Origin: a virus
DNA: 64,000 bases
Strand: one strand, 5' to 3'
IMG/VR virus record: IMGVR_UViG_3300042475_004151
The notes under the pieces were generated by a model, which was not told the origin of the DNA, ran no database searches, and was given only the letters and a program-made list of their open reading frames with translations. The first letter of the stretch is position 1, and every line of letters begins with the position of its first letter. Made by a program: the position numbers and the translations under genes. Below are positions 9,326-58,621 of this stretch, piece after piece.

Positions 9326-9559
9326 TTAAATATAATCATTAACATCGTAACAATGTCTATCTGGGTAAATTTCAATAATTGAATCTTTATACTCGTTTAA
9401 ATTCCATTCAAACTGTTCACGAGATTTACATGGATAGTCTACAGTTTCAAACTTATTTATTTTTCTACAAATACGAACAATATCATATATATCAATATAA
9501 CCTGTTCTTTGAGCATTAAATAATTGATCATCTGTTTCAAAAGTAAATGTGTAATTCAT
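9326..9559 (-). CDS. Small hypothetical early protein
   Basis: ORF with its own promoter copy and A-rich leader. Confidence 0.7.
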   Translation of the reverse strand: MNYTFTFETDDQLFNAQRTGYIDIYDIVRICRKINKFETVDYPCKSREQFEWNLNEYKDSIIEIYPDRHCYDVNDYI

Positions 9560-9581
9560 AACCTTAATTTTTATTTATATC

Positions 9582-28253: not shown

Positions 28254-28856
28254 TTAAGCTAAACAAGCATAGTATTCCTTAAAATGCTTAATACGATCAG
28301 CTAATCCAATAGTACCTCCATTAACACGTTTTGTAATTGTTGTTACAACAGCGTCAGTTGCACCACCATCAGCTAATTTATGTAAACCATTTTTATGAAA
28401 GAACCAACCAGCTGACATTAATGGATATTTTGTAGCTACTAAATCAGGATTTTCAATAATATTTTCTTCAACTACATTATCAAAAGCTTTATAATTATCT
28501 TTTCCAGTTAATTGGATATAACCACGTCCACGAAATTTATATCCTTCACCTGATGCTTTATCACCATTTCCCATACGTGAAGCATAAACAATATTGGCTA
28601 TTTTTTCTGGTTTACGTTCATAAAGTAAAGCCATATCATTTGTTGGGAAATATTTTTTAAATATACTTGTTAAACCCTTAGCACCATAGTTTAAATTTTC
28701 ATTCACTAACTTAAATCCACCTGATTCATGTCCAGCTTGAGCAAGGAAATGAGCTAAACGCAATGGTGTGTTTAACTCAAATTTAACAATTGTATCAGGA
28801 AGTTGAGCGATTACTGTATCTGGAATATGTCCTTTTAATTTTTCTAAGTTCATCAT
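28254..28856 (-). CDS. Glycoside hydrolase family 19 endolysin
   Basis: HFLAQAGHESGGF..ENLNY, FRGRGYIQLTGKDNY, TKRVNGGTIGLADR. Confidence 0.9.
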   Translation of the reverse strand: MMNLEKLKGHIPDTVIAQLPDTIVKFELNTPLRLAHFLAQAGHESGGFKLVNENLNYGAKGLTSIFKKYFPTNDMALLYERKPEKIANIVYASRMGNGDKASGEGYKFRGRGYIQLTGKDNYKAFDNVVEENIIENPDLVATKYPLMSAGWFFHKNGLHKLADGGATDAVVTTITKRVNGGTIGLADRIKHFKEYYACLA

Positions 28857-29041
28857 TTTTTAATTTTAATCTTATAATAAATTTGAATGCATAGCCAAGT
28901 TATAGAAGCTATATAAAACAATCCTGTTATTAAGGGATTAAATACTTGGAAGAAACTATTTAGAGCTGCAAGGCATGTTGTTGTAATACCTAAGGCATTA
29001 GCTTCTGAAGAATTCATCATGGTTGTTATAAATTTAGGCAT
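28853..29041 (-). CDS. Putative holin
   Basis: 62 aa, hydrophobic segments, basic C-terminus KIKIKK, overlaps the endolysin start. Confidence 0.55.
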   Translation of the reverse strand: MPKFITTMMNSSEANALGITTTCLAALNSFFQVFNPLITGLFYIASITWLCIQIYYKIKIKK

Positions 29042-44612: not shown

Positions 44613-45577
44613 TTATTTTTTAAGTTGTTCTTCACAAAATTCAATTAATTTTTTAGCTGTTTCTGATTCAATATCTAATTCTTCTTCATCACTATTCATG
44701 ATTATCCAATCATTAGTCAATTCTCCTTCAGCAAAGTGAATCCAATATTCTTCTCCTTTCCAATCAATTAACCATTTTCCAGTTATATATTGAGCATAAT
44801 CAATTACTTGCATTTCCATAAACTTATTTTTTAACATATATAATATTCCTTTAACATATCACTTTCAATAAGTTGCTTAATTTGTTTTTTAAGCTCCTCA
44901 TAATCAGCAGGTTTAGCTATCTGCCAAATTTCTAAAGTAGTATCAACGTGATCATCTTCTTGAAATATCTTAACACAAACCTGTTTACCTAAACATTCTT
45001 CTAATGTATAATCAAAATCCATAATCTTTATTTTATTTTTATTATTAACGAATTCTTCTTACATCTGCTACTTTTGGTTTAGCATCATCAATATCCTTCT
45101 TAGCTCTACTTTCAGCATTCTTACGTTCCCAATATTTAAATTGTTCTGCAAGTGGTAACATTGTGGGTTCAAAATCTGGATGAGTCTCACTCATTTCTTG
45201 TTTGTTACGCTTAGCTGTTTTTTCAAACTTACTAATCATTCTTTCTTGGTCGGAGTTCTTGTCGTAATAAAATCCCATACTTTTTTAATTTTTATTTATG
45301 ATTAAAGATAATAAATTAATTTCGGTTAATAATCTCCATATCTAGCAAAGGCACGCTTAAAATTCATTTCATGATTCAGCTTATCTTCTTTAAGTCGCTC
45401 CTTAAGCCATTCTTGATATTTAGCTAACTTATAAACCTCCTCACTAATCTTATCACTTAACAAATTTAAACGTTCACTCATACCAGGACTAAAATCTCTA
45501 CGATTAATAGTCTCAACACAATAATACAAATCATTCAATTCTTGTTGACTAAGTTCTATTCCGACTTTTTTGCTCAT
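44613..45577 (-). CDS. Four small hypothetical early genes (44613-44837, 44831-45022, 45045-45278, 45326-45577)
   Basis: Track ORFs with A-rich leaders; promoter copies at 45303-45329 and 45595-45621. Confidence 0.65.
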
Positions 45578-45806: not shown

Positions 45807-46995
45807 TCAGTTGGATTTAGCGTTTTTTCTTGGTTTTTTAACCATACTACCACTCACCTCACTCACAAGTGAAGGTATTGTTTGACCAACTCCAAGTTGT
45901 GTTTTAAACCATATCAAACCATCCTCCACTTTAATCACTTGATATTGGGTTTCATCTTTCGCGATTTTAATCCACGAGTTAATAGGTATATCCATATTAA
46001 GCGGCTTTTTTATTGTTAACAAATGATTTACAAGCGTGTGTTTTCGCGTTTACTTGATTCCAAATGTTCCAATCAATCATTTTTGAAAATGCCTGGTGCA
46101 TATCACCTACAGTTATACTTTCTAAAATTGCCTTATCAATTGAATACCATTTACCACCTTTAGTTGTCAACACATGAAACCAATATGATCTACCTGATAT
46201 TAATCTTTCAACTTCAACTACAGTTGTGTGTTTAGATATATACCAAGCTAAATCTTTACCCGCACAACTTACATCTTTAATACATTGAAAACCTGCTTTT
46301 GCTTTTGCGGTCATTCTAAAATTGTAAACAATATCTTCTTTTAATAAATTTGACACACTAATATCCTGACCATTGATTCTAATTGAACCGTAAAAAATAT
46401 CACTTGTTAAATTTCCGGTGTTTACTTTGATTAAATTTTCCATAACTTTTAATTTTTATTTATATCTAAATATAGTAATTAAGTTGCGGTCAATTACCTA
46501 TAGTGTATAGTTACCCTTGTACACTTATACCCATATGAAACTGTTTCATATAATTTGACATCTAATGTTGGGTCAAGTGATTTGATATAGTTAAAAACTT
46601 CTACTGCATTAATAACCCTGATTTTAATTCGGCGGGTGCCGGATTTATAAAGGTCATTGTAAAACGCAAAATTTTCTCCAAATTTGTTTCTTAAAACAGG
46701 TCTTAATGTTTTCCAATTCATAATCTTAATTTTTTATTATAATTAAATATAGTAAACAAGTTGCGGTCAATTAACAACCGGCCATTATTTCATTATGCTC
46801 ATCAATCTGGATTTGAATATGCCTAAATGAATCATAATTGTATGTAGTATCAAACCACTTACTATTATCATCCCAACCTTTGGGAAACATAGGTGCCAAA
46901 TCACTATCGGTAACTTTTGGGTTAATTAATTTGATAATCGCATCAAAATGGTTTTTTGGTAAACTCACTAAACTCTCTAATTTTTCTTTATACAT
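45807..46995 (-). CDS. Four hypothetical early genes (45807-~45995, 45997-46443, 46494-46721, 46771-46995)
   Basis: Track ORFs; promoter copies at 46467-46493, 46744-46770 and 47018-47044. Confidence 0.7.
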
Positions 46996-47030
46996 AACTC
47001 TTAATTTTTATTATACCTAAATATACTGAA

Positions 47031-49281: not shown

Positions 49282-50787
49282 CTACCGCACTATTTTTATG
49301 TCAGCCGTCGTTTCAATTACCACTCTCGCACCACAACTCAATAACGGCTTAGCATCCACCCCATCACCCCCATACACTATCCTACTCGGTCCCATTATCT
49401 CTACCTCATTACAATACGTGTTTGTCTTACCTTGTTTAATTGTTATCACAGGTAATTTCGTCCCACGTTGTTTATTTGACCTAACATTATGTTGGTTAAC
49501 ATGTATTTTAGTTACTTGTTGCCTCGCCATTGTCCTTATTATCCTTAGTGTTGCTTAATTTTAATGTCGCACGTGATGTCTTATTTATCATAGACATTAT
49601 CTCATCCATCATCTTAGCTATCGTATACTCATATCCACCCATAGCCATCTTGATACACGTTGCGTTCTTATTTGATTCAGGTACATACACCGCCTCGATA
49701 AATTCTGAGTTGATGTATATTGTATTATTTGCCGTGTCCGTTAACTTGATTAAATTATTCATTATATGTTTGTTTTTTTATTATTCCTGGGTTATAGTTT
49801 GTTGTTTATTATTATTGTTGCTATTTTATCTTGAGCCACTTGTACATCTTGATCAATTCTATCAATTCTAGCATTTAGATAGCCAACAGCAAATCCATTC
49901 ATCCATAGTTGTTTATCACTCTCCTCAAATCCATATTGGTATGTCCACTGTTTTTCAGCTAGTGCTTTAATTTGATCTGTTGTCATATGTTACTGTTTAT
50001 GTATTTAATTTCATTAACATAATTCTCCGCATCATTAATATGATTACATTGTGCATCATCATAACCTGCATTATAATCCCTGATGTGTTGGTTATATTCT
50101 TTTTCAATTGCTCTAGTAAATATACCTTCCCTTTCTAGTCTTTCAAATATAGACCGTACCAATGTATTCTCTAATTCTTCAATTAACTGTTGTACTGTTG
50201 ATTTATTTTCCATATGTGTCATTATAATTTTACTTTCACGTATCTTCCACTATCACTTACCATTTGTAATGTATCTTTACCTTGCATCCATTGTACCTTA
50301 ATCCATCCTATTGTTGTATCATTCTGAACTATGATACTATGAGGTTGATCATTATTATCACTTGTAAATCCATACATCCATCCATACCCACGTAGAGTAT
50401 CAACTTTACTTCTACCTATCGCATCTTTATAGATTATTGATACTCTTGGTGAATTAGTTTCTACTCGGTAATAATACCAATACATTTGTTTATACTTTCT
50501 ACAGGAACATAATATTAGTGTAATAAATAAACATAGTATAAATACTGTTATTAGTTTCATAACTTAAAGATAGTAAATTTATTTTCCATAACTTATCGTT
50601 TAAATTTAATTAATCCTAAAATGTGTATTGGAACAACGAATGGTGCACATATCATTGATGGAACTACATATGCCAATATATCCATTAATGTAAAATAGTT
50701 CTTATCATCTCCTATTGAAGGAGTTGTAATGCACCAATATACTCCGTACACTGTCGTTAATATCCAATAAATAATTAAATATGTCAT
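49282..50787 (-). CDS. Six small hypothetical genes (49282-49530, 49508-49762, 49792-49986, 49983-50222, 50222-50560 lipoprotein-like, 50593-50787 membrane)
   Basis: Track ORFs, overlapping or abutting; 50222-50560 has a hydrophobic signal ending LCSC. Confidence 0.6.
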
Positions 50788-50800
50788 AATTTATTTTTCG

Positions 50801-50876
50801 CAGTCAGGGCCGGACTCGAACCGGATAAGCAACCATTACTGGACTCGGAACCGTTCCTCATTACGCCCACCTGACT
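50801..50876 (-). tRNA. Degenerate tRNA-like element (76 nt; anticodon arm not canonical)
   Basis: Acceptor AGTCAGG/CCTGACT plus discriminator G; T arm CCGG-TTCGAGT-CCGG; D and anticodon stems pair poorly; no encoded CCA. Confidence 0.6.
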
Positions 50877-52754: not shown

Positions 52755-54477
52755 TTAAGCGGCTTTTAATTTTGATTCATAACGTTTTGTTTCTTTTTCA
52801 TTACTTTTATCAGCTTGATCATATTCCCAAGTATAAACTTTATCAACAAAGTCTTTAAATTTTTTCTCTAACACATCATACTCTCTCTGTCTTCCATCTT
52901 CAAAATATACCACTATTTTATATTTATTACCTTTTTTATTTAATACTTTAAAACCATGAGTATAAGTAGTATCATATTTTGATCGACCATATTGTAATTC
53001 TATACTTTTACTTCTTTCAACTAATTCATTCTCATAAGTACAATGTAGTGATTTTTTAAATGAAGTACTTTCATAACCAATTTCTAACATTGATTTGAGT
53101 TTATCATCACGTATCTCAAGCGATAAAGTATTTAAAGCACTATTTAATGTTTTATAATCTTCTTCAAATTTAACTTTATTATTATTTATTTCATTATATT
53201 GAACTTTCCATGTATTCTCAAATAAATCACTAATGGTTGAGTATTTATCAACTAATTCATTTAAAAGTTTGATGTGATTAATATAAAGTGCTACACTAGA
53301 TCCTACATTAGCACTACTGTACATGATATTTAATTCTGTTTTTTTATTATAACCCTCATACCTATTAGCTAATCTAACTCTAAAATTATATCTGTCTGAG
53401 TCACTAGATATTATTTCAATTTCACTCCCATTATAATCAAATTCATCATATGTAGCTTTAATATTATCAACAAACCATCTATTGACTTTAGTTTTTAACT
53501 CAACCATAGCTGGAGTGTATGTATTTTTATTATACTGATCACATTCTTGTTGTCTAATATCAAGTTGGGCTTTAAGTGTGTCGTACAAAAACTGTTTAGT
53601 GTTCATAACCTTAATTTAAGTGTATAAAATTTAATTTTTCATCTGGTGTTACTGGAAGGTAAATTAATTCAGGTCTGTTTGGATAGGCGAATATTTGCAC
53701 CTTATCAACTCCAGCATTTATTTCTTCAATGATTAGTTCTACTTGTTCTTCATCTACCCAACCATCACCATCTATATCAACTACATTACCGACGTAATAT
53801 AAACCATCATATTGGGGAAAATCATTTTTAGTCAACATAACCTTAATTTTTATTTATAATTAAATATAGTGAATTAATCCAGGTCAATTAAAAAATCCCA
53901 TTGGGCATTAATTGCTTCTTTACCTATTATCTCTATTTCATATTCAGCTTCCATTTCCATTACTGTGCCTAATTCTCTAATTTCAACTAATTTATTCCAA
54001 TTATCAACAGTCTTATTTTCCATATAAACCTTGGTTAGTTCAAATTCTAAATCCATTAATTTTTCTAATGTCATATACTTAATTTTTATTTATAATTAAA
54101 TATAGCATATGAGTTGCGGTCAATCAAACACAACCATGTTTAGTTAGTATAGTACGGAGTTTTGTAATATCATCAGCCGTATGTTGTTTTTTTGTAATAC
54201 GATCACATATATTAGCAGATTGTCTAATATCATGTTGTAAATCGTCTATTCGAGGGCGGAAATCACCATTTTTAGACATCCAAAAATGTAATTGATTATT
54301 AAGGCAAATTTTAGCTGTGCCTATTAATTTACGATGTTCATTGTATTGTATCTCATCATAGTCAACATCATCTCCTAATATACCATTTAGATTGATATTA
54401 TACTTACGTAAATCTTGTCCCTTTTTATCTCGATTGAGAAGTTTGTCTGCGAATTTTTCAAATGGATTTTTTGACAT
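52755..54477 (-). CDS. Four hypothetical genes (52755-53606, 53611-53838, 53874-54074, 54124-54477)
   Basis: Track ORFs; promoter copies at 53861-53887 and 54097-54123; late motif at 54522-54529. Confidence 0.65.
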
Positions 54478-54529
54478 TGGTCACACATAGGGTTTATTTA
54501 ATTAGAAATAAATTGTCTGCTATAAATAT

Positions 54530-54563
54530 AAAAAAAGAGCCCCAGACTAAGAATAGTCGGGGC
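54530..54563 (-). terminator. Rho-independent terminator
   Basis: GCCCCGACTA-TTCT-TAGTCTGGGGC followed by TCTTTTTTT on the minus strand. Confidence 0.8.
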
Positions 54564-54594
54564 GAAATAAAAATTAAAAGTATGAATACAAAGT

Positions 54595-55302
54595 TTAAAT
54601 TATTTTATTTGAATATCTTTTTATTTGTGCTTCTTTCATTTTTTGTTTTGTTTCTTCTGAGTGTTTGCAACCTTTTAACTTTAAGTTAGGTTTACCTTTT
54701 AATGACTCACTACGTTTATGTTTTGTCTCTTCAGATTGTTTATTGCCGTAATGACCATGTTGTTCACCTTGTTTTGTTATATTATATTTTTTACCTTTTT
54801 TCGCCTCACTTATATTTTTTCTAGTTTCATCATTTCTTTTTGAACCAATTATATTTTTGAAACGATTCTGTATATGCTCTAATGTTTGTTTTTTACCTTT
54901 ATTTTTATTTTTATTTCCTTTAATTAATCTTTCTTTAGCTATTCCTATTCTAGGTTTTCCTTTCGTGGCTTTACTTATATTTATTGCTCTAGTTGGATGA
55001 TTTTGAGATTTTAACTTCATTTCTTCTGTCCAATATTCAGGACCACTACCGCCTTTTTTACGTTTATTTATTACTTCAAACCCCCACTGTTTAAATTGTT
55101 CAATCCAATATGTTTCTAATGGTTCCCAATTGTATTTAATTAATGACTCTATTTGATCTATAACAGTAAATTTGATTTGTTTACCATATGTTTTTTCATG
55201 AGCTTCTTTTCTCCAATTTAAATTTTTAGTCTTACCTATATAAACTTTATTAGTTCCTTTTTCTATATTTTCAATTAAATATATATAAGTGATGTTTGTC
55301 AT
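54595..55302 (-). CDS. Free-standing GIY-YIG homing endonuclease with NUMOD3-type repeats
   Basis: YIYLIEN..VYIGKT..LETYWI..N..KGG; repeats such as GNKQSEETKHKRSE and CKHSEETKQKMKE. Confidence 0.85.
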   Translation of the reverse strand: MTNITYIYLIENIEKGTNKVYIGKTKNLNWRKEAHEKTYGKQIKFTVIDQIESLIKYNWEPLETYWIEQFKQWGFEVINKRKKGGSGPEYWTEEMKLKSQNHPTRAINISKATKGKPRIGIAKERLIKGNKNKNKGKKQTLEHIQNRFKNIIGSKRNDETRKNISEAKKGKKYNITKQGEQHGHYGNKQSEETKHKRSESLKGKPNLKLKGCKHSEETKQKMKEAQIKRYSNKII

Positions 55303-55338
55303 ATTAATAAATATCTCTGCATACCCATAAAGTGGTCT

Positions 55339-55722
55339 TTATTCAATCATAAAAGGATTGTTGGAAAAAATTTCATAGTAGCACATCCATTTATATTTTC
55401 TCTCCATTCTATTAGCCTCTCGTTCTAATGGATGGTTTTTATAACTATATGTCTCTTGTAATTTATTATATTTTCGTTTTATACTCTGATGGTAATGAGT
55501 ATATTCATGAATAACTGTGCCTATAAATCCTACAAATGTTCTATGTTTACCTTTATAGACATGTATTTCATTATTATAAACATCATAACATCCTGCCCAC
55601 TCACCTTTCTTATGAAATACTAATTTGGGATAAGAACCATTTATAGTACTAGCACCAAATGTTTTTTTACACCAATCAAAAATTTTAACTGTGTTTTTCC
55701 TGTTTATGTCTACTGTATTCAT
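55339..55722 (-). CDS. SprT-like zincin metallopeptidase domain protein
   Basis: TVIHEYTHYHQ..HPLEREAN. Confidence 0.7.
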   Translation of the reverse strand: MNTVDINRKNTVKIFDWCKKTFGASTINGSYPKLVFHKKGEWAGCYDVYNNEIHVYKGKHRTFVGFIGTVIHEYTHYHQSIKRKYNKLQETYSYKNHPLEREANRMERKYKWMCYYEIFSNNPFMIE

Positions 55723-56008
55723 GGTTTAGTTCTTTTAATATTTTTTGAATTTCAATACACTCTTCAAACATATCGTTTTCTGAGAATGCACTTAGACAAG
55801 TATTAAGAGACACAACCCACTGATCACGATTAAGTATAAACTCAACCATTTCATTTTTTATATGAAGTGTAAATGCTGTTACCTGTTTACGCTTACGTTT
55901 ATCATTAAACGCTTTTTTAATTTGATTGAATACTTCAACTGATATACTTATATCTTTACTTTCTATCTTGTTCTTAAACTCCTCAATCGACTCAAATTTA
56001 AACACCAT
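55685..56008 (-). CDS. Hypothetical protein with UVR-like C-terminal helix pair (paralog of 60370..60690)
   Basis: W..SL..C..FEECIEIQKIL. Confidence 0.6.
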   Translation of the reverse strand: MVFKFESIEEFKNKIESKDISISVEVFNQIKKAFNDKRKRKQVTAFTLHIKNEMVEFILNRDQWVVSLNTCLSAFSENDMFEECIEIQKILKELNHEYSRHKQEKHS

Positions 56009-56049
56009 AGTCAGTATTTGATATAAATATACCAGATGAAGCGGAGTGT

Positions 56050-56838
56050 TTAATTAACAAACTCCTCAGCCAGCTCCCATAATGCCTCATTGATCTTCAA
56101 ATCCTGGCTGAAATTCTTGACTGCTCTAGCTTTGCGTGTTTTAACTCCATTCATATAACTACAGCCGCCGCTGATTAATTTTTCTTGAACTCGATTAAAC
56201 ACAACCCATAAATTATTACCTTCATCTGCTTTACGCTCAGCTACTAACAATTCACTTAAATCAACTTTAACACCCTCACCAAATCTAACCGCAGATGCTT
56301 TTTCAGCAAACTTAGTTACTTGTTTATCACTTAATTCGATGTTTTGAAATTTGTTAATTTTTTCAACTAGTCCTGGAAATGATCCAACTGCCTCATTAAT
56401 TTTTTCAGTTAATTCAGCAAATGTATATCCCATGTGGCGTAGTTTAAAATCACCATAACTAGTATCCATAACTACTAATCCATTTGAACATACTAATCTA
56501 AACAATCCAATTTGAAACTTAAATGAACTTAATCCATCATGACTATTTGTTAATAGTATTTGTGGAAATACATCATCTCCATTAACACCTTCAATCACAA
56601 TGTCTGGATTAAAAAACTTAATCATGTGTCGTTGATAACCTTTAGTAGATTTTTTACGAGCTTTAATCTCAACCGCTTGGCACGGCTTCCAACCTAATGA
56701 CATCATGTCATTTATTACTCTGTCGGTCGGAATGTGAACGTAATGTTCACTCAGGTTAGCTTTTTGCTTTGTCTGAAAAATACTTGGAGCTGCTTGTTTG
56801 ACCTGCTCCATGGTCAATTCTGTGAATACGTTACTCAT
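56050..56838 (-). CDS. DUF932/DUF945-family protein
   Basis: SEHYVHIPT, LLTNSHDG..GLFRLVCSNGL, RKADEGNNLWVVFNRVQE, NEALWELA. Confidence 0.85.
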   Translation of the reverse strand: MSNVFTELTMEQVKQAAPSIFQTKQKANLSEHYVHIPTDRVINDMMSLGWKPCQAVEIKARKKSTKGYQRHMIKFFNPDIVIEGVNGDDVFPQILLTNSHDGLSSFKFQIGLFRLVCSNGLVVMDTSYGDFKLRHMGYTFAELTEKINEAVGSFPGLVEKINKFQNIELSDKQVTKFAEKASAVRFGEGVKVDLSELLVAERKADEGNNLWVVFNRVQEKLISGGCSYMNGVKTRKARAVKNFSQDLKINEALWELAEEFVN

Positions 56839-56890
56839 AATTTTTAATTTTTATTTATATAATAAATTTAACGTACAAACTGCGGTCAAA

Positions 56891-57157: not shown

Positions 57158-57766
57158 TTAATTTTTAAATTTCCAAATATAATTATAAGCTGTTTTTTGT
57201 TTTCCCCTACATACAGCTCCTATTCCATCATTATTAGGCTTATTAAAAAACAATTGAGCTTCTTTTTGTGAGTTCCATTCCTGAATAAAATTTCCTTGTA
57301 AATCAAATTGCAAAACAGGTGATATATACCAAGTATTTTTTCTTCCTATTAAATGTCCTCGTTTTTCTTTTATTTTAATTTTATGTTCATTAGTAAATGT
57401 TTTACCTTTAAAATAACTTACTCTTCCTTTATTAGATTCACTTATTTTTAACCCTCGCTCTTTATTATTCTTTAATTTAATCTTCATCTCCTCAGTCCAA
57501 AATTCTAACCCACCTCCTCCTTTTTTATTATTATTCACAATTTTAAATCCCCATTGTCTGAATTGTTCTAACCAATATGTTTCTAATGGTTCCCAATTTT
57601 TTCTATATAATGATTTTACTTGATCTATAATAGTGAAATTGATTTGTTTACCGTATGTTATTTTATGTTGATTTTTTCTAATAAAAGGAGATTTAGTTTT
57701 ACCTATATAAACTTTATTAGGATCTCCATAACAATTCTCAACTAAATATATATATGTGATATTCAT
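57158..57766 (-). CDS. Free-standing GIY-YIG homing endonuclease with NUMOD3/NUMOD1-type DNA-binding domains
   Basis: N-terminus closely similar to 54595..55302; PVLQFDLQGNFIQEWNSQKEA..CRGKQKTAYNYIWKF. Confidence 0.85.
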   Translation of the reverse strand: MNITYIYLVENCYGDPNKVYIGKTKSPFIRKNQHKITYGKQINFTIIDQVKSLYRKNWEPLETYWLEQFRQWGFKIVNNNKKGGGGLEFWTEEMKIKLKNNKERGLKISESNKGRVSYFKGKTFTNEHKIKIKEKRGHLIGRKNTWYISPVLQFDLQGNFIQEWNSQKEAQLFFNKPNNDGIGAVCRGKQKTAYNYIWKFKN

Positions 57767-58144: not shown

Positions 58145-58576
58145 TTATTTAATTTTAATATCCAAATTTTTCTCTCTCAACGCTATAACATGTTTACAAT
58201 TACCTTTACTTCTCCAAAATCCCATACATGTACATTTATAAGTATTTTTATTTGGATTGTAAGTTGTTTTATACTTACCCATTGAACCATCAATATGTTC
58301 AATTATTTTTTTCTGTTTTGGTTTAATCCAAACAACATCTTCAAATTTAGTTTCTGGATGTACTTCTATCCACATTGGGACTAGATATGTTTTATTGTCT
58401 CTATCTGATTTATAAATTGTTGGAGGTAAATGATGTTCAATATGATATTTAAATCGACTAGCGTAACTAGATATGATTTCATCTCGTTTAGGATAAATTA
58501 CAATTGGTTCTGTTGAACTAACTATTTCATTTATAACTGTCCCATTTGTGAACATTTTCTTAAGTGTCCATAACAT
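58145..58576 (-). CDS. SWIM zinc-finger protein
   Basis: CTCMGFWRSKGNCKHV; promoter copy 58599-58625. Confidence 0.75.
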   Translation of the reverse strand: MLWTLKKMFTNGTVINEIVSSTEPIVIYPKRDEIISSYASRFKYHIEHHLPPTIYKSDRDNKTYLVPMWIEVHPETKFEDVVWIKPKQKKIIEHIDGSMGKYKTTYNPNKNTYKCTCMGFWRSKGNCKHVIALREKNLDIKIK

Positions 58577-58621
58577 AACCTTAATTTTTATTTATAACTA
58601 AATATAATAACCTAATCTAGG

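Follow-up and report, generated by a model that had tools for sequence, protein, structure and literature searches.

Regulatory small RNAs that derive from the 3′ untranslated regions (3′ UTRs) of bacterial mRNAs have been reviewed (PMC9438474). The element that we describe here, a U-rich block in the 3′ UTR of a phage operon, resembles these RNAs in that a conserved seed sits just before its own intrinsic terminator and is better conserved than the rest of the UTR; as in the processed type, it has no promoter of its own and is predicted to pair with the translation starts of other mRNAs. Examples of the bacterial class include CpxQ, SdhX, and MicL. Unlike them, the element is encoded by a phage, is predicted to act on the phage's own genes, and is known from sequence alone, and its seed of about 20 nt consists almost entirely of U and A and fits a whole family of leaders that are nearly identical. 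The host group differs as well: the Bacteroidota are not known to have Hfq and do without Shine-Dalgarno pairing, and their ribosomes depend on an unstructured A-rich region and the AUG.

Several phage RNAs, among them lambda OOP, P22 sar, and c4 of P1 and P7, repress phage genes through base pairing. The last of these, c4, is cut from an operon transcript and acts in trans on a ribosome-binding region. It is a structured RNA whose two short loops match a single target, whereas the element described here is an unstructured 3′-UTR segment that lies far from its predicted targets and matches many.

Binding sites of the T4 protein RegA are A+U-rich and unstructured, with a 5′ poly(A) tract, and include the AUG (PMC3014915). 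The A-rich leaders of the present phage resemble these sites, and the outcome predicted for it, post-transcriptional shut-down of many early messages through their translation starts, is like that brought about by RegA and RegB. The T4 translational repressor RegA and endoribonuclease RegB are proteins, whereas the effector proposed here is an RNA. The T4 trick of cutting early messages at the Shine-Dalgarno site would be unworkable in Bacteroidota because these hosts do not use Shine-Dalgarno pairing, and a search for the RegA family, run without a positive control, gave no match in relatives of our phage or in Flavobacterium phage immuto.

Transcript mapping in virulent Pseudomonas phages yielded 29 5′-UTR-derived noncoding RNA candidates, putative 3′-UTR-derived ones, and twenty antisense RNAs (PMC10914365). 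Virulent phages do, then, make UTR-derived and antisense RNAs; those candidates are transcript observations without known targets, whereas the element is a target prediction made from sequence. To our knowledge, none of the UTR-derived or antisense RNAs of virulent phages is known to have such a regulon.

Results

The window, by which we mean the whole stretch of 64,000 nucleotides of phage DNA that was analyzed, has a G+C content of 29% and carries every one of its genes on the minus strand. Its nearest named relative, Flavobacterium phage immuto, is a weak one, recognized through a 140-base match in a near-identity search of a named phage collection. About a dozen single-gene cassettes of the window lie behind TGACC-N13-TAnnTTTA boxes, and these are the cassettes that we call early type; the labels "early" and "late" are inferred from promoter motifs and sparse annotation, and PHROG annotation is likewise sparse for the genes behind late-type motifs. 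We are aware of almost nothing that is known about the timing of gene expression in Bacteroidota phages.

The element (54565..54587, minus strand) is a U-rich block of 23 nt whose complement extends, in early-type cassettes, from the A-rich leader across the AUG to the first bases of codon 2. The original prediction had read the plus strand at 54565-54584 as the early leader with its start codon, inverted relative to the genes, and the sequence agrees with that reading. On the minus strand, the stop codon of a homing endonuclease gene is followed by a 7-base spacer, the 23-mer (54587 to 54565), 1 base, a stem-loop (54563-54539), and UC with seven U's (54538-54530). The late-type motif ATATTTATA then follows (54521..54529, minus strand), which is the promoter motif of the next gene and forms the downstream edge of the unit, outside the RNA; after it come a 43-nt leader and that gene, which encodes a 117-aa protein (54124..54477). 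The element is placed between the stop codon of the last gene and the mRNA terminator both in the window and in relatives, and the layout is that of a 3′-UTR seed: stop codon, short spacer, seed, and terminator, with the seed better conserved than the neighboring non-coding sequence. Rfam returned no family at the gathering score, the best hit being Plastid-rpl20 3′UTR with 25.8 bits against a cutoff of 53 (E = 0.86).

A terminator hairpin had been predicted directly behind the block, and it is present at 54530-54563. The stem-loop (54539..54563, minus strand) has 10 pairs, one bulge, and a 4-nt loop, and together with the U tail (54530..54538, minus strand) it folds at -16.9 kcal/mol; a simple terminator scan missed it due to the bulge in the stem. 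A hairpin folds at this place in 17 of 17 relatives, with energies from -8.5 to -20.7 kcal/mol and differing stem sequences, and each of the 17 has a U run behind it. Double changes affect three of the seven consensus stem pairs, even in an alignment that was blind to structure. A G+C-rich stem-loop and a U run are thus both found, and it is the structure rather than the sequence that is kept across relatives. Since the stems diverge in sequence and yet each of them folds with a U run behind it, the comparison identifies the stem-loop and U tract as a genuine intrinsic terminator.

Two candidate promoters on the plus strand around this edge were considered and discarded. An early-type promoter at 54495-54512, split from the leader by the hairpin, proved to be a stretch that is a near-palindrome of the -7 region, with a distance to a TTGACA-like word that is 3 nt too long and without conservation in relatives of the L002 type. 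A T4-type late promoter was suggested by the opposite strand of the late-type motif, which contains the T4 late consensus; each copy of the motif, however, lies 18-25 nt upstream of a minus-strand start, which rules this out.

The 17-mer at 54565-54581 has two exact copies in the window, namely the element (plus strand) and the minus-strand leader of 45997..46443. Matches of 15 bases are found in the leaders of 45045..45278 and 56050..56838 and matches of 13 bases in those of 9326..9559, 53611..53838, 53874..54074, and 58145..58576, and all of the match lengths that had been predicted (17, 15, 15, 13, 13, 13, and 13) were recovered. Eight copies of the 13-mer core occur in the window, seven as minus-strand leaders and one, inverted, as the element. 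The matching leaders are 0.5-45 kb away from the element. A cis-encoded antisense RNA of the OOP or sar type was rejected, as these leaders are on the same strand at other loci and no conserved opposite-strand promoter was found.

Nine leaders of the window, all on the minus strand, are predicted targets. The best is the leader and AUG of 45997..46443 (46441..46463), with 17 contiguous pairs and a duplex energy of -17.5 kcal/mol, followed by the leaders of 45045..45278 (45276..45299; -15.5 kcal/mol) and 9326..9559 (9557..9578; -15.3 kcal/mol), the latter with 13 Watson-Crick pairs and G-U pairs up to the AUG. The leader of a DUF932 gene (56836..56858), which would also be the partner in a cis model discussed below, is predicted to pair at -14.8 kcal/mol, and that of 46771..46995 (46993..47015) at -14.6 kcal/mol. 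Weaker pairing is predicted for the leaders of 46494..46721 (46719..46742; -12.7 kcal/mol), 53874..54074 (54072..54093; -12.5 kcal/mol), 53611..53838 (53836..53857; -12.0 kcal/mol), and 58145..58576 (58574..58595; -12.0 kcal/mol).

We compared the element with all ∼64,000 22-mers of the minus-strand RNA by their mean duplex energy with 12 early-type leaders, and it ranked first, with -12.5 kcal/mol against -8.6 kcal/mol for the runner-up. Among 101 gene starts, a duplex of -12 kcal/mol or lower was reached by 9 of the 13 box-bearing cassettes and by 0 of the 88 other genes, while 300 composition-matched shuffles of the block reached on average 0.4 leaders at that energy and at most 3. At up to 2 mismatches, the 17-mer was found 6 times, compared to 0.74 times in shuffles of the window, and the element is the only site in the window where several gene leaders recur inverted. 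A chance resemblance within AT-rich intergenic DNA might be suspected in a genome of this base composition, with leaders of low complexity, and similar 18-19-mers do serve as ordinary leaders in unrelated AT-rich viral contigs. Against this stand the first rank with its gap of ∼4 kcal/mol to the next 22-mer, the shuffle controls, and 17 relatives that conserve the block while neighboring non-coding bases diverge, and we regard chance as having next to no probability. The match is far above what AT content leads one to expect, a check that the original prediction had called for and that the 22-mer ranking, the shuffles, and the inverted-recurrence scan all bear out: the complementarity to the leaders is far beyond chance.

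The element reaches 9 of 12 leaders at the threshold, whereas the perfect complement of any single leader reaches 1-7 of 11; its mean energy equals that of the best single-leader complement. Since U pairs with both A and G, G-U pairing lets the element cover the two leader variants, "AAAGU" and "AAGGUU", as far as the AUG. This wider reach, as computed, fits a consensus-type multi-target seed.

The best partner of the element outside the cassettes is the start of a gene at 28853-29041 (minus strand), with -11.7 kcal/mol and 12 contiguous pairs including the AUG. This gene encodes a hydrophobic protein of 62 aa directly upstream of the endolysin gene (28254..28856) and is likely the holin gene.

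Relatives were collected from IMG/VR and JGI metagenome contigs, all lake-derived and with the same gene order, through protein-guided and pattern searches. A core of 19 nt is kept in 17 distinct relatives with four small variants, an extra U (L002 and L060), an extra AC (L008 and L009), an A-to-G change (L015 and L020), and a U-to-G change (L012), while the flanking proteins, the 117-aa protein included, are 55-81% identical to those of the window. In the alignment of relatives, the core columns are invariant or nearly so whereas spacer and stem vary, and the conserved part takes in the complement of the AUG. The element is also kept in relatives that lack the endonuclease gene, the comparison by which its conservation was to be judged, and this pattern of variation indicates that purifying selection acts on the block itself. 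Immuto, a cultured relative, has similar cassettes but lacks the element in the 8 kb that surround its DUF932 gene, and the element is so far known from a clade of uncultured lake phages.

Covariation between element and leaders is scant. One compensatory change, in register, was found in the L015 lineage, in which the element has the A-to-G change and the best-matching leader a T-to-C change at position -8; this rests on a single event with a rough chance of ∼0.05, in an element that barely varies. Searches with the extra-U and extra-AC variants gave no matching sense leaders, the leaders vary between relatives without corresponding changes in the element, and in L002 the best predicted duplexes reach only -12 to -13 kcal/mol. 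The phage of L041 has a second anti-leader-like stretch, a 19-of-21 match inside a gp55-like sigma gene (L078:1557-1577, plus strand), which is probably due to chance. Another conserved non-coding feature of the window, upstream of 50593..50787, is a tRNA T-arm-like word, GGTTCGAGTCC, at 50788-50840 (minus strand), which is also kept in L001.

Strong invariance with almost no covariation is what would be expected of a protein recognition site, be it a double-stranded DNA site that the element has in common with the initial transcribed region of early promoters, working in either orientation, or a signal in the RNA for the stability or processing of its 3′ end. The same DNA word does lie behind the -7 box of many early promoters, and in many relatives a late-type promoter follows about 35-60 bp downstream of the element, the motif at 54521..54529 being kept in those relatives whose 117-aa gene sits directly downstream. 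In a second group (L006, L007, L012, and L015-L021), however, an extra gene of ∼100 aa with its own early-type promoter lies between the terminator and the 117-aa gene (a gap of ∼340 nt) in place of the late-type motif, and the element persists there unchanged. No copy of it accompanies any other late-type promoter of the window, and the single compensatory change touches one leader rather than all sites of that phage. The block furthermore includes the complement of the start codon, and leaders differ in how far the AUG stands from the A-rich core; given this variable spacing, a logic acting on translation starts at the RNA level would explain the retention of that complement better than a promoter-proximal DNA motif. 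We consider a protein site unlikely, if deserving of some weight.

The original prediction offered as its alternative that a hydrophobic peptide of 35 aa (54582-54689) is encoded on the plus strand, with the block as leader and start of its gene. The window does contain this open reading frame (ORF) of 35 codons, with a perfect leader and ATG and a hydrophobic product. In relatives, the same ATG opens 3, 4, 6, 8-13, or ∼46 codons of unrelated sequence, and neither frame nor peptide is conserved. The ORF of the window runs antisense to the lysine-rich end of the inserted endonuclease gene, which by itself yields frames rich in Phe and Leu, and there is no conserved plus-strand promoter, the region consisting of the terminator and the promoter of the next gene, which is of two types in relatives. 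As the length of the opposite-strand ORF ranges from 3 to 46 codons, we reject the peptide, to which we attach only a vanishing probability.

The operon upstream of the element has a constant order in relatives, in which the DUF932 gene is followed by the late-type motif, a 107-aa gene, and a 127-aa gene. In the window, the DUF932 gene (Pfam) with its early-type promoter and leader is located at 56050..56885, the late-type motif ATATTTATA at 56022..56030, the 107-aa gene, the first behind this motif, at 55685..56008, and the 127-aa gene at 55339..55722, all on the minus strand. The 127-aa gene has an HExxH-like motif and is the last resident gene of the operon, with a stop codon 1-25 nt from the element in relatives. 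The late motifs that had been reported upstream were found at about 55306-55313 and 56022-56030; the latter is conserved in relatives and probably serves as promoter for the RNA whose 3′ end would carry the element. The 400 nt that precede the element contain neither type of promoter motif, and a conserved late-type motif lies about 740 nt upstream. By this arrangement, the element is not a gene of its own but the 3′ terminus of an operon mRNA and is most consistently found behind the late-type motif; with no promoter motif in those 400 nt, any short form of the RNA must come from processing.

A GIY-YIG/NUMOD3 homing endonuclease gene (Pfam; 54595..55302, minus strand) interrupts, in the window, the spacer that leads from the 127-aa stop codon to the element. 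It is absent from all relatives examined, and because these keep the element without it, we take the endonuclease gene to be a later insertion upstream of a resident element. The insertion left the element intact, and the endonuclease mRNA would in this phage end with it. The element, beside the insertion point, is a plausible part of the homing site of this enzyme.

The window has a second GIY-YIG gene (57158-57766), located between a 105-aa gene and a thioredoxin-like gene that are adjacent in L001. Both this gene and that at 54595-55302 are missing from the syntenic loci of L001 and L002, and in each the ATG comes just 4-5 nt after a late-type motif.

The operon lies behind both the early-type promoter of the DUF932 gene and the late-type motif. 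A hairpin spanning the DUF932 stop codon (56030-56065, minus strand; L002:5120-5170) folds at -19.5 kcal/mol and has a short T run in most relatives, while in the window and in L001 it is weak and without the T run, and reading from the DUF932 promoter into the operon is possible in the window. This hairpin may separate the early-type from the late-type transcription unit as an insulator or attenuator. The original prediction of a late silencing RNA stood as far as the above-background match, the conservation, and the 3′-UTR architecture are concerned; its "late" part did not stand in the same way, since the early-type DUF932 promoter also precedes the operon.

This arrangement also allows a closed loop in cis, in which the 5′ leader of the DUF932 mRNA would pair with the anti-leader that closes the same transcript at its 3′ end and either limit DUF932 translation or protect the RNA ends. 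The DUF932 gene with its early-type leader lies at a fixed distance of ∼1,510 nt upstream of the element in every relative without the endonuclease gene, in each case its leader is one of the better partners predicted (-12 to -16 kcal/mol), and the weak hairpin between DUF932 and the next gene makes read-through plausible in the window. In most relatives, though, an early transcript would stop at the strong hairpin and not reach the element; as a rule some other leader pairs better than that of DUF932, and DUF932 leaders are of two spacing types among relatives, a difference that the element does not follow. The lack of covariation with this leader and the insulating hairpin weaken a purely cis model, which we judge quite improbable.

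In relatives, the exact 19-mer is also an ordinary sense leader before real genes, most often one for a two-helix membrane protein of 79-81 aa. The element could thus be an antisense RNA with this gene start as its one dedicated target, the matches to the cassettes being a side effect of look-alike leaders. The 65.8-kb contig of L001 has the 21-mer only in the leader of the membrane protein gene and in the element, inverted and 25 kb apart, and the T-to-C change at -8 in the phage of L015 is in the leader of this very gene while the other leaders there keep the T. The exact 19-mer fronts the gene in at least 7 distinct IMG/VR contigs in which the sequence just upstream differs, but these seven are an ascertained set, found by searching for that 19-mer. 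Across the 79 closest homologues, the leaders are very diverse, with an exact match in 1 of 79, and the homologue in the phage of L016 has an unrelated leader. The gene lies ∼25 kb upstream of the element in relatives, so that with the gene order of L001 it would fall outside the window; it was found neither in the window nor in the 102-kb contig of L002. We think a single dedicated target rather unlikely.

The membrane protein family (L035:3637-3876, plus strand; homologues L137-L216) is widespread, with 151 relatives in IMG/VR and two predicted membrane helices, and one of its subclades carries the exact leader mirrored by the element. PHROG and Pfam gave no function for it. Its neighbors include genes for a chaperonin-like protein, an HNH endonuclease, and a non-specific nuclease, which make no obvious lysis cassette.

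Discussion

The block at 54565-54587 (minus strand) may be an anti-leader seed at the 3′ end of the mRNA of the 107-aa/127-aa operon, to which the endonuclease gene has been added, blocking phage translation starts in trans, and we give this interpretation roughly even odds of being correct. What was directly read or computed is the sequence itself together with how specific and how conserved it is, the presence of the terminator, the lack of a promoter dedicated to the element, and the failure of relatives to conserve the opposite-strand ORF.

According to this proposal, transcripts of the 107-aa/127-aa operon, lengthened by the endonuclease gene in our phage, would stop at the terminator at 54530-54563, with their last base at 54531, and so finish in a U-rich 23-mer that is partly single stranded, followed by a stable hairpin and a U tail. 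The seed would pair with the cassettes from the A-rich leader, which has no Shine-Dalgarno sequence, through the AUG and two or three bases beyond it, and this pairing in trans would occlude the site at which ribosomes load. A duplex of ∼20 bp would be formed that is open to double-strand RNases, and early-type genes would be turned down as the anti-leader accumulates. The RNA end at this site, the pairing in the cell, its timing, and the effect on translation are what we infer in this scheme. Two features of the seed speak against the anti-leader interpretation: all pairs save one or two are A-U or G-U, so that the stability of the duplex would depend on length alone, and the probability that the seed is unpaired in the terminated RNA is just 0.3-0.6 in predicted folds. 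The scant covariation, the modest duplexes of L002, the possible reading of the operon from the DUF932 promoter, and the result for immuto weigh on the same side.

A broader and more tentative proposal, which we rate as possible but doubtful, is that the seed of this one late-operon 3′-end RNA would serve as a global translational off-switch for the whole set of early cassettes, in a virulent, T4-related phage of a host without Shine-Dalgarno pairing. If so, the shared early leader would be conserved partly as the handle for this switch, which would be an RNA counterpart of T4 RegA and RegB.

The case is unusually testable, since the seed, the terminator, and about ten predicted targets have been placed with single-base precision and nature provides variants of the element (the extra U, the extra AC, and the A-to-G change). 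The short pair of leader and anti-leader could also act as an orthogonal translational switch in Flavobacteria. The locus shows, in addition, a homing endonuclease gene entering a 3′ UTR without disturbing a candidate regulatory element.

We know of no phage 3′-UTR RNA with a defined regulon of phage genes, and this would be the first. If the proposal holds, phages of this clade would have a simple RNA route to the shut-off of early genes, through a conserved antisense seed directed against a shared A-rich leader.
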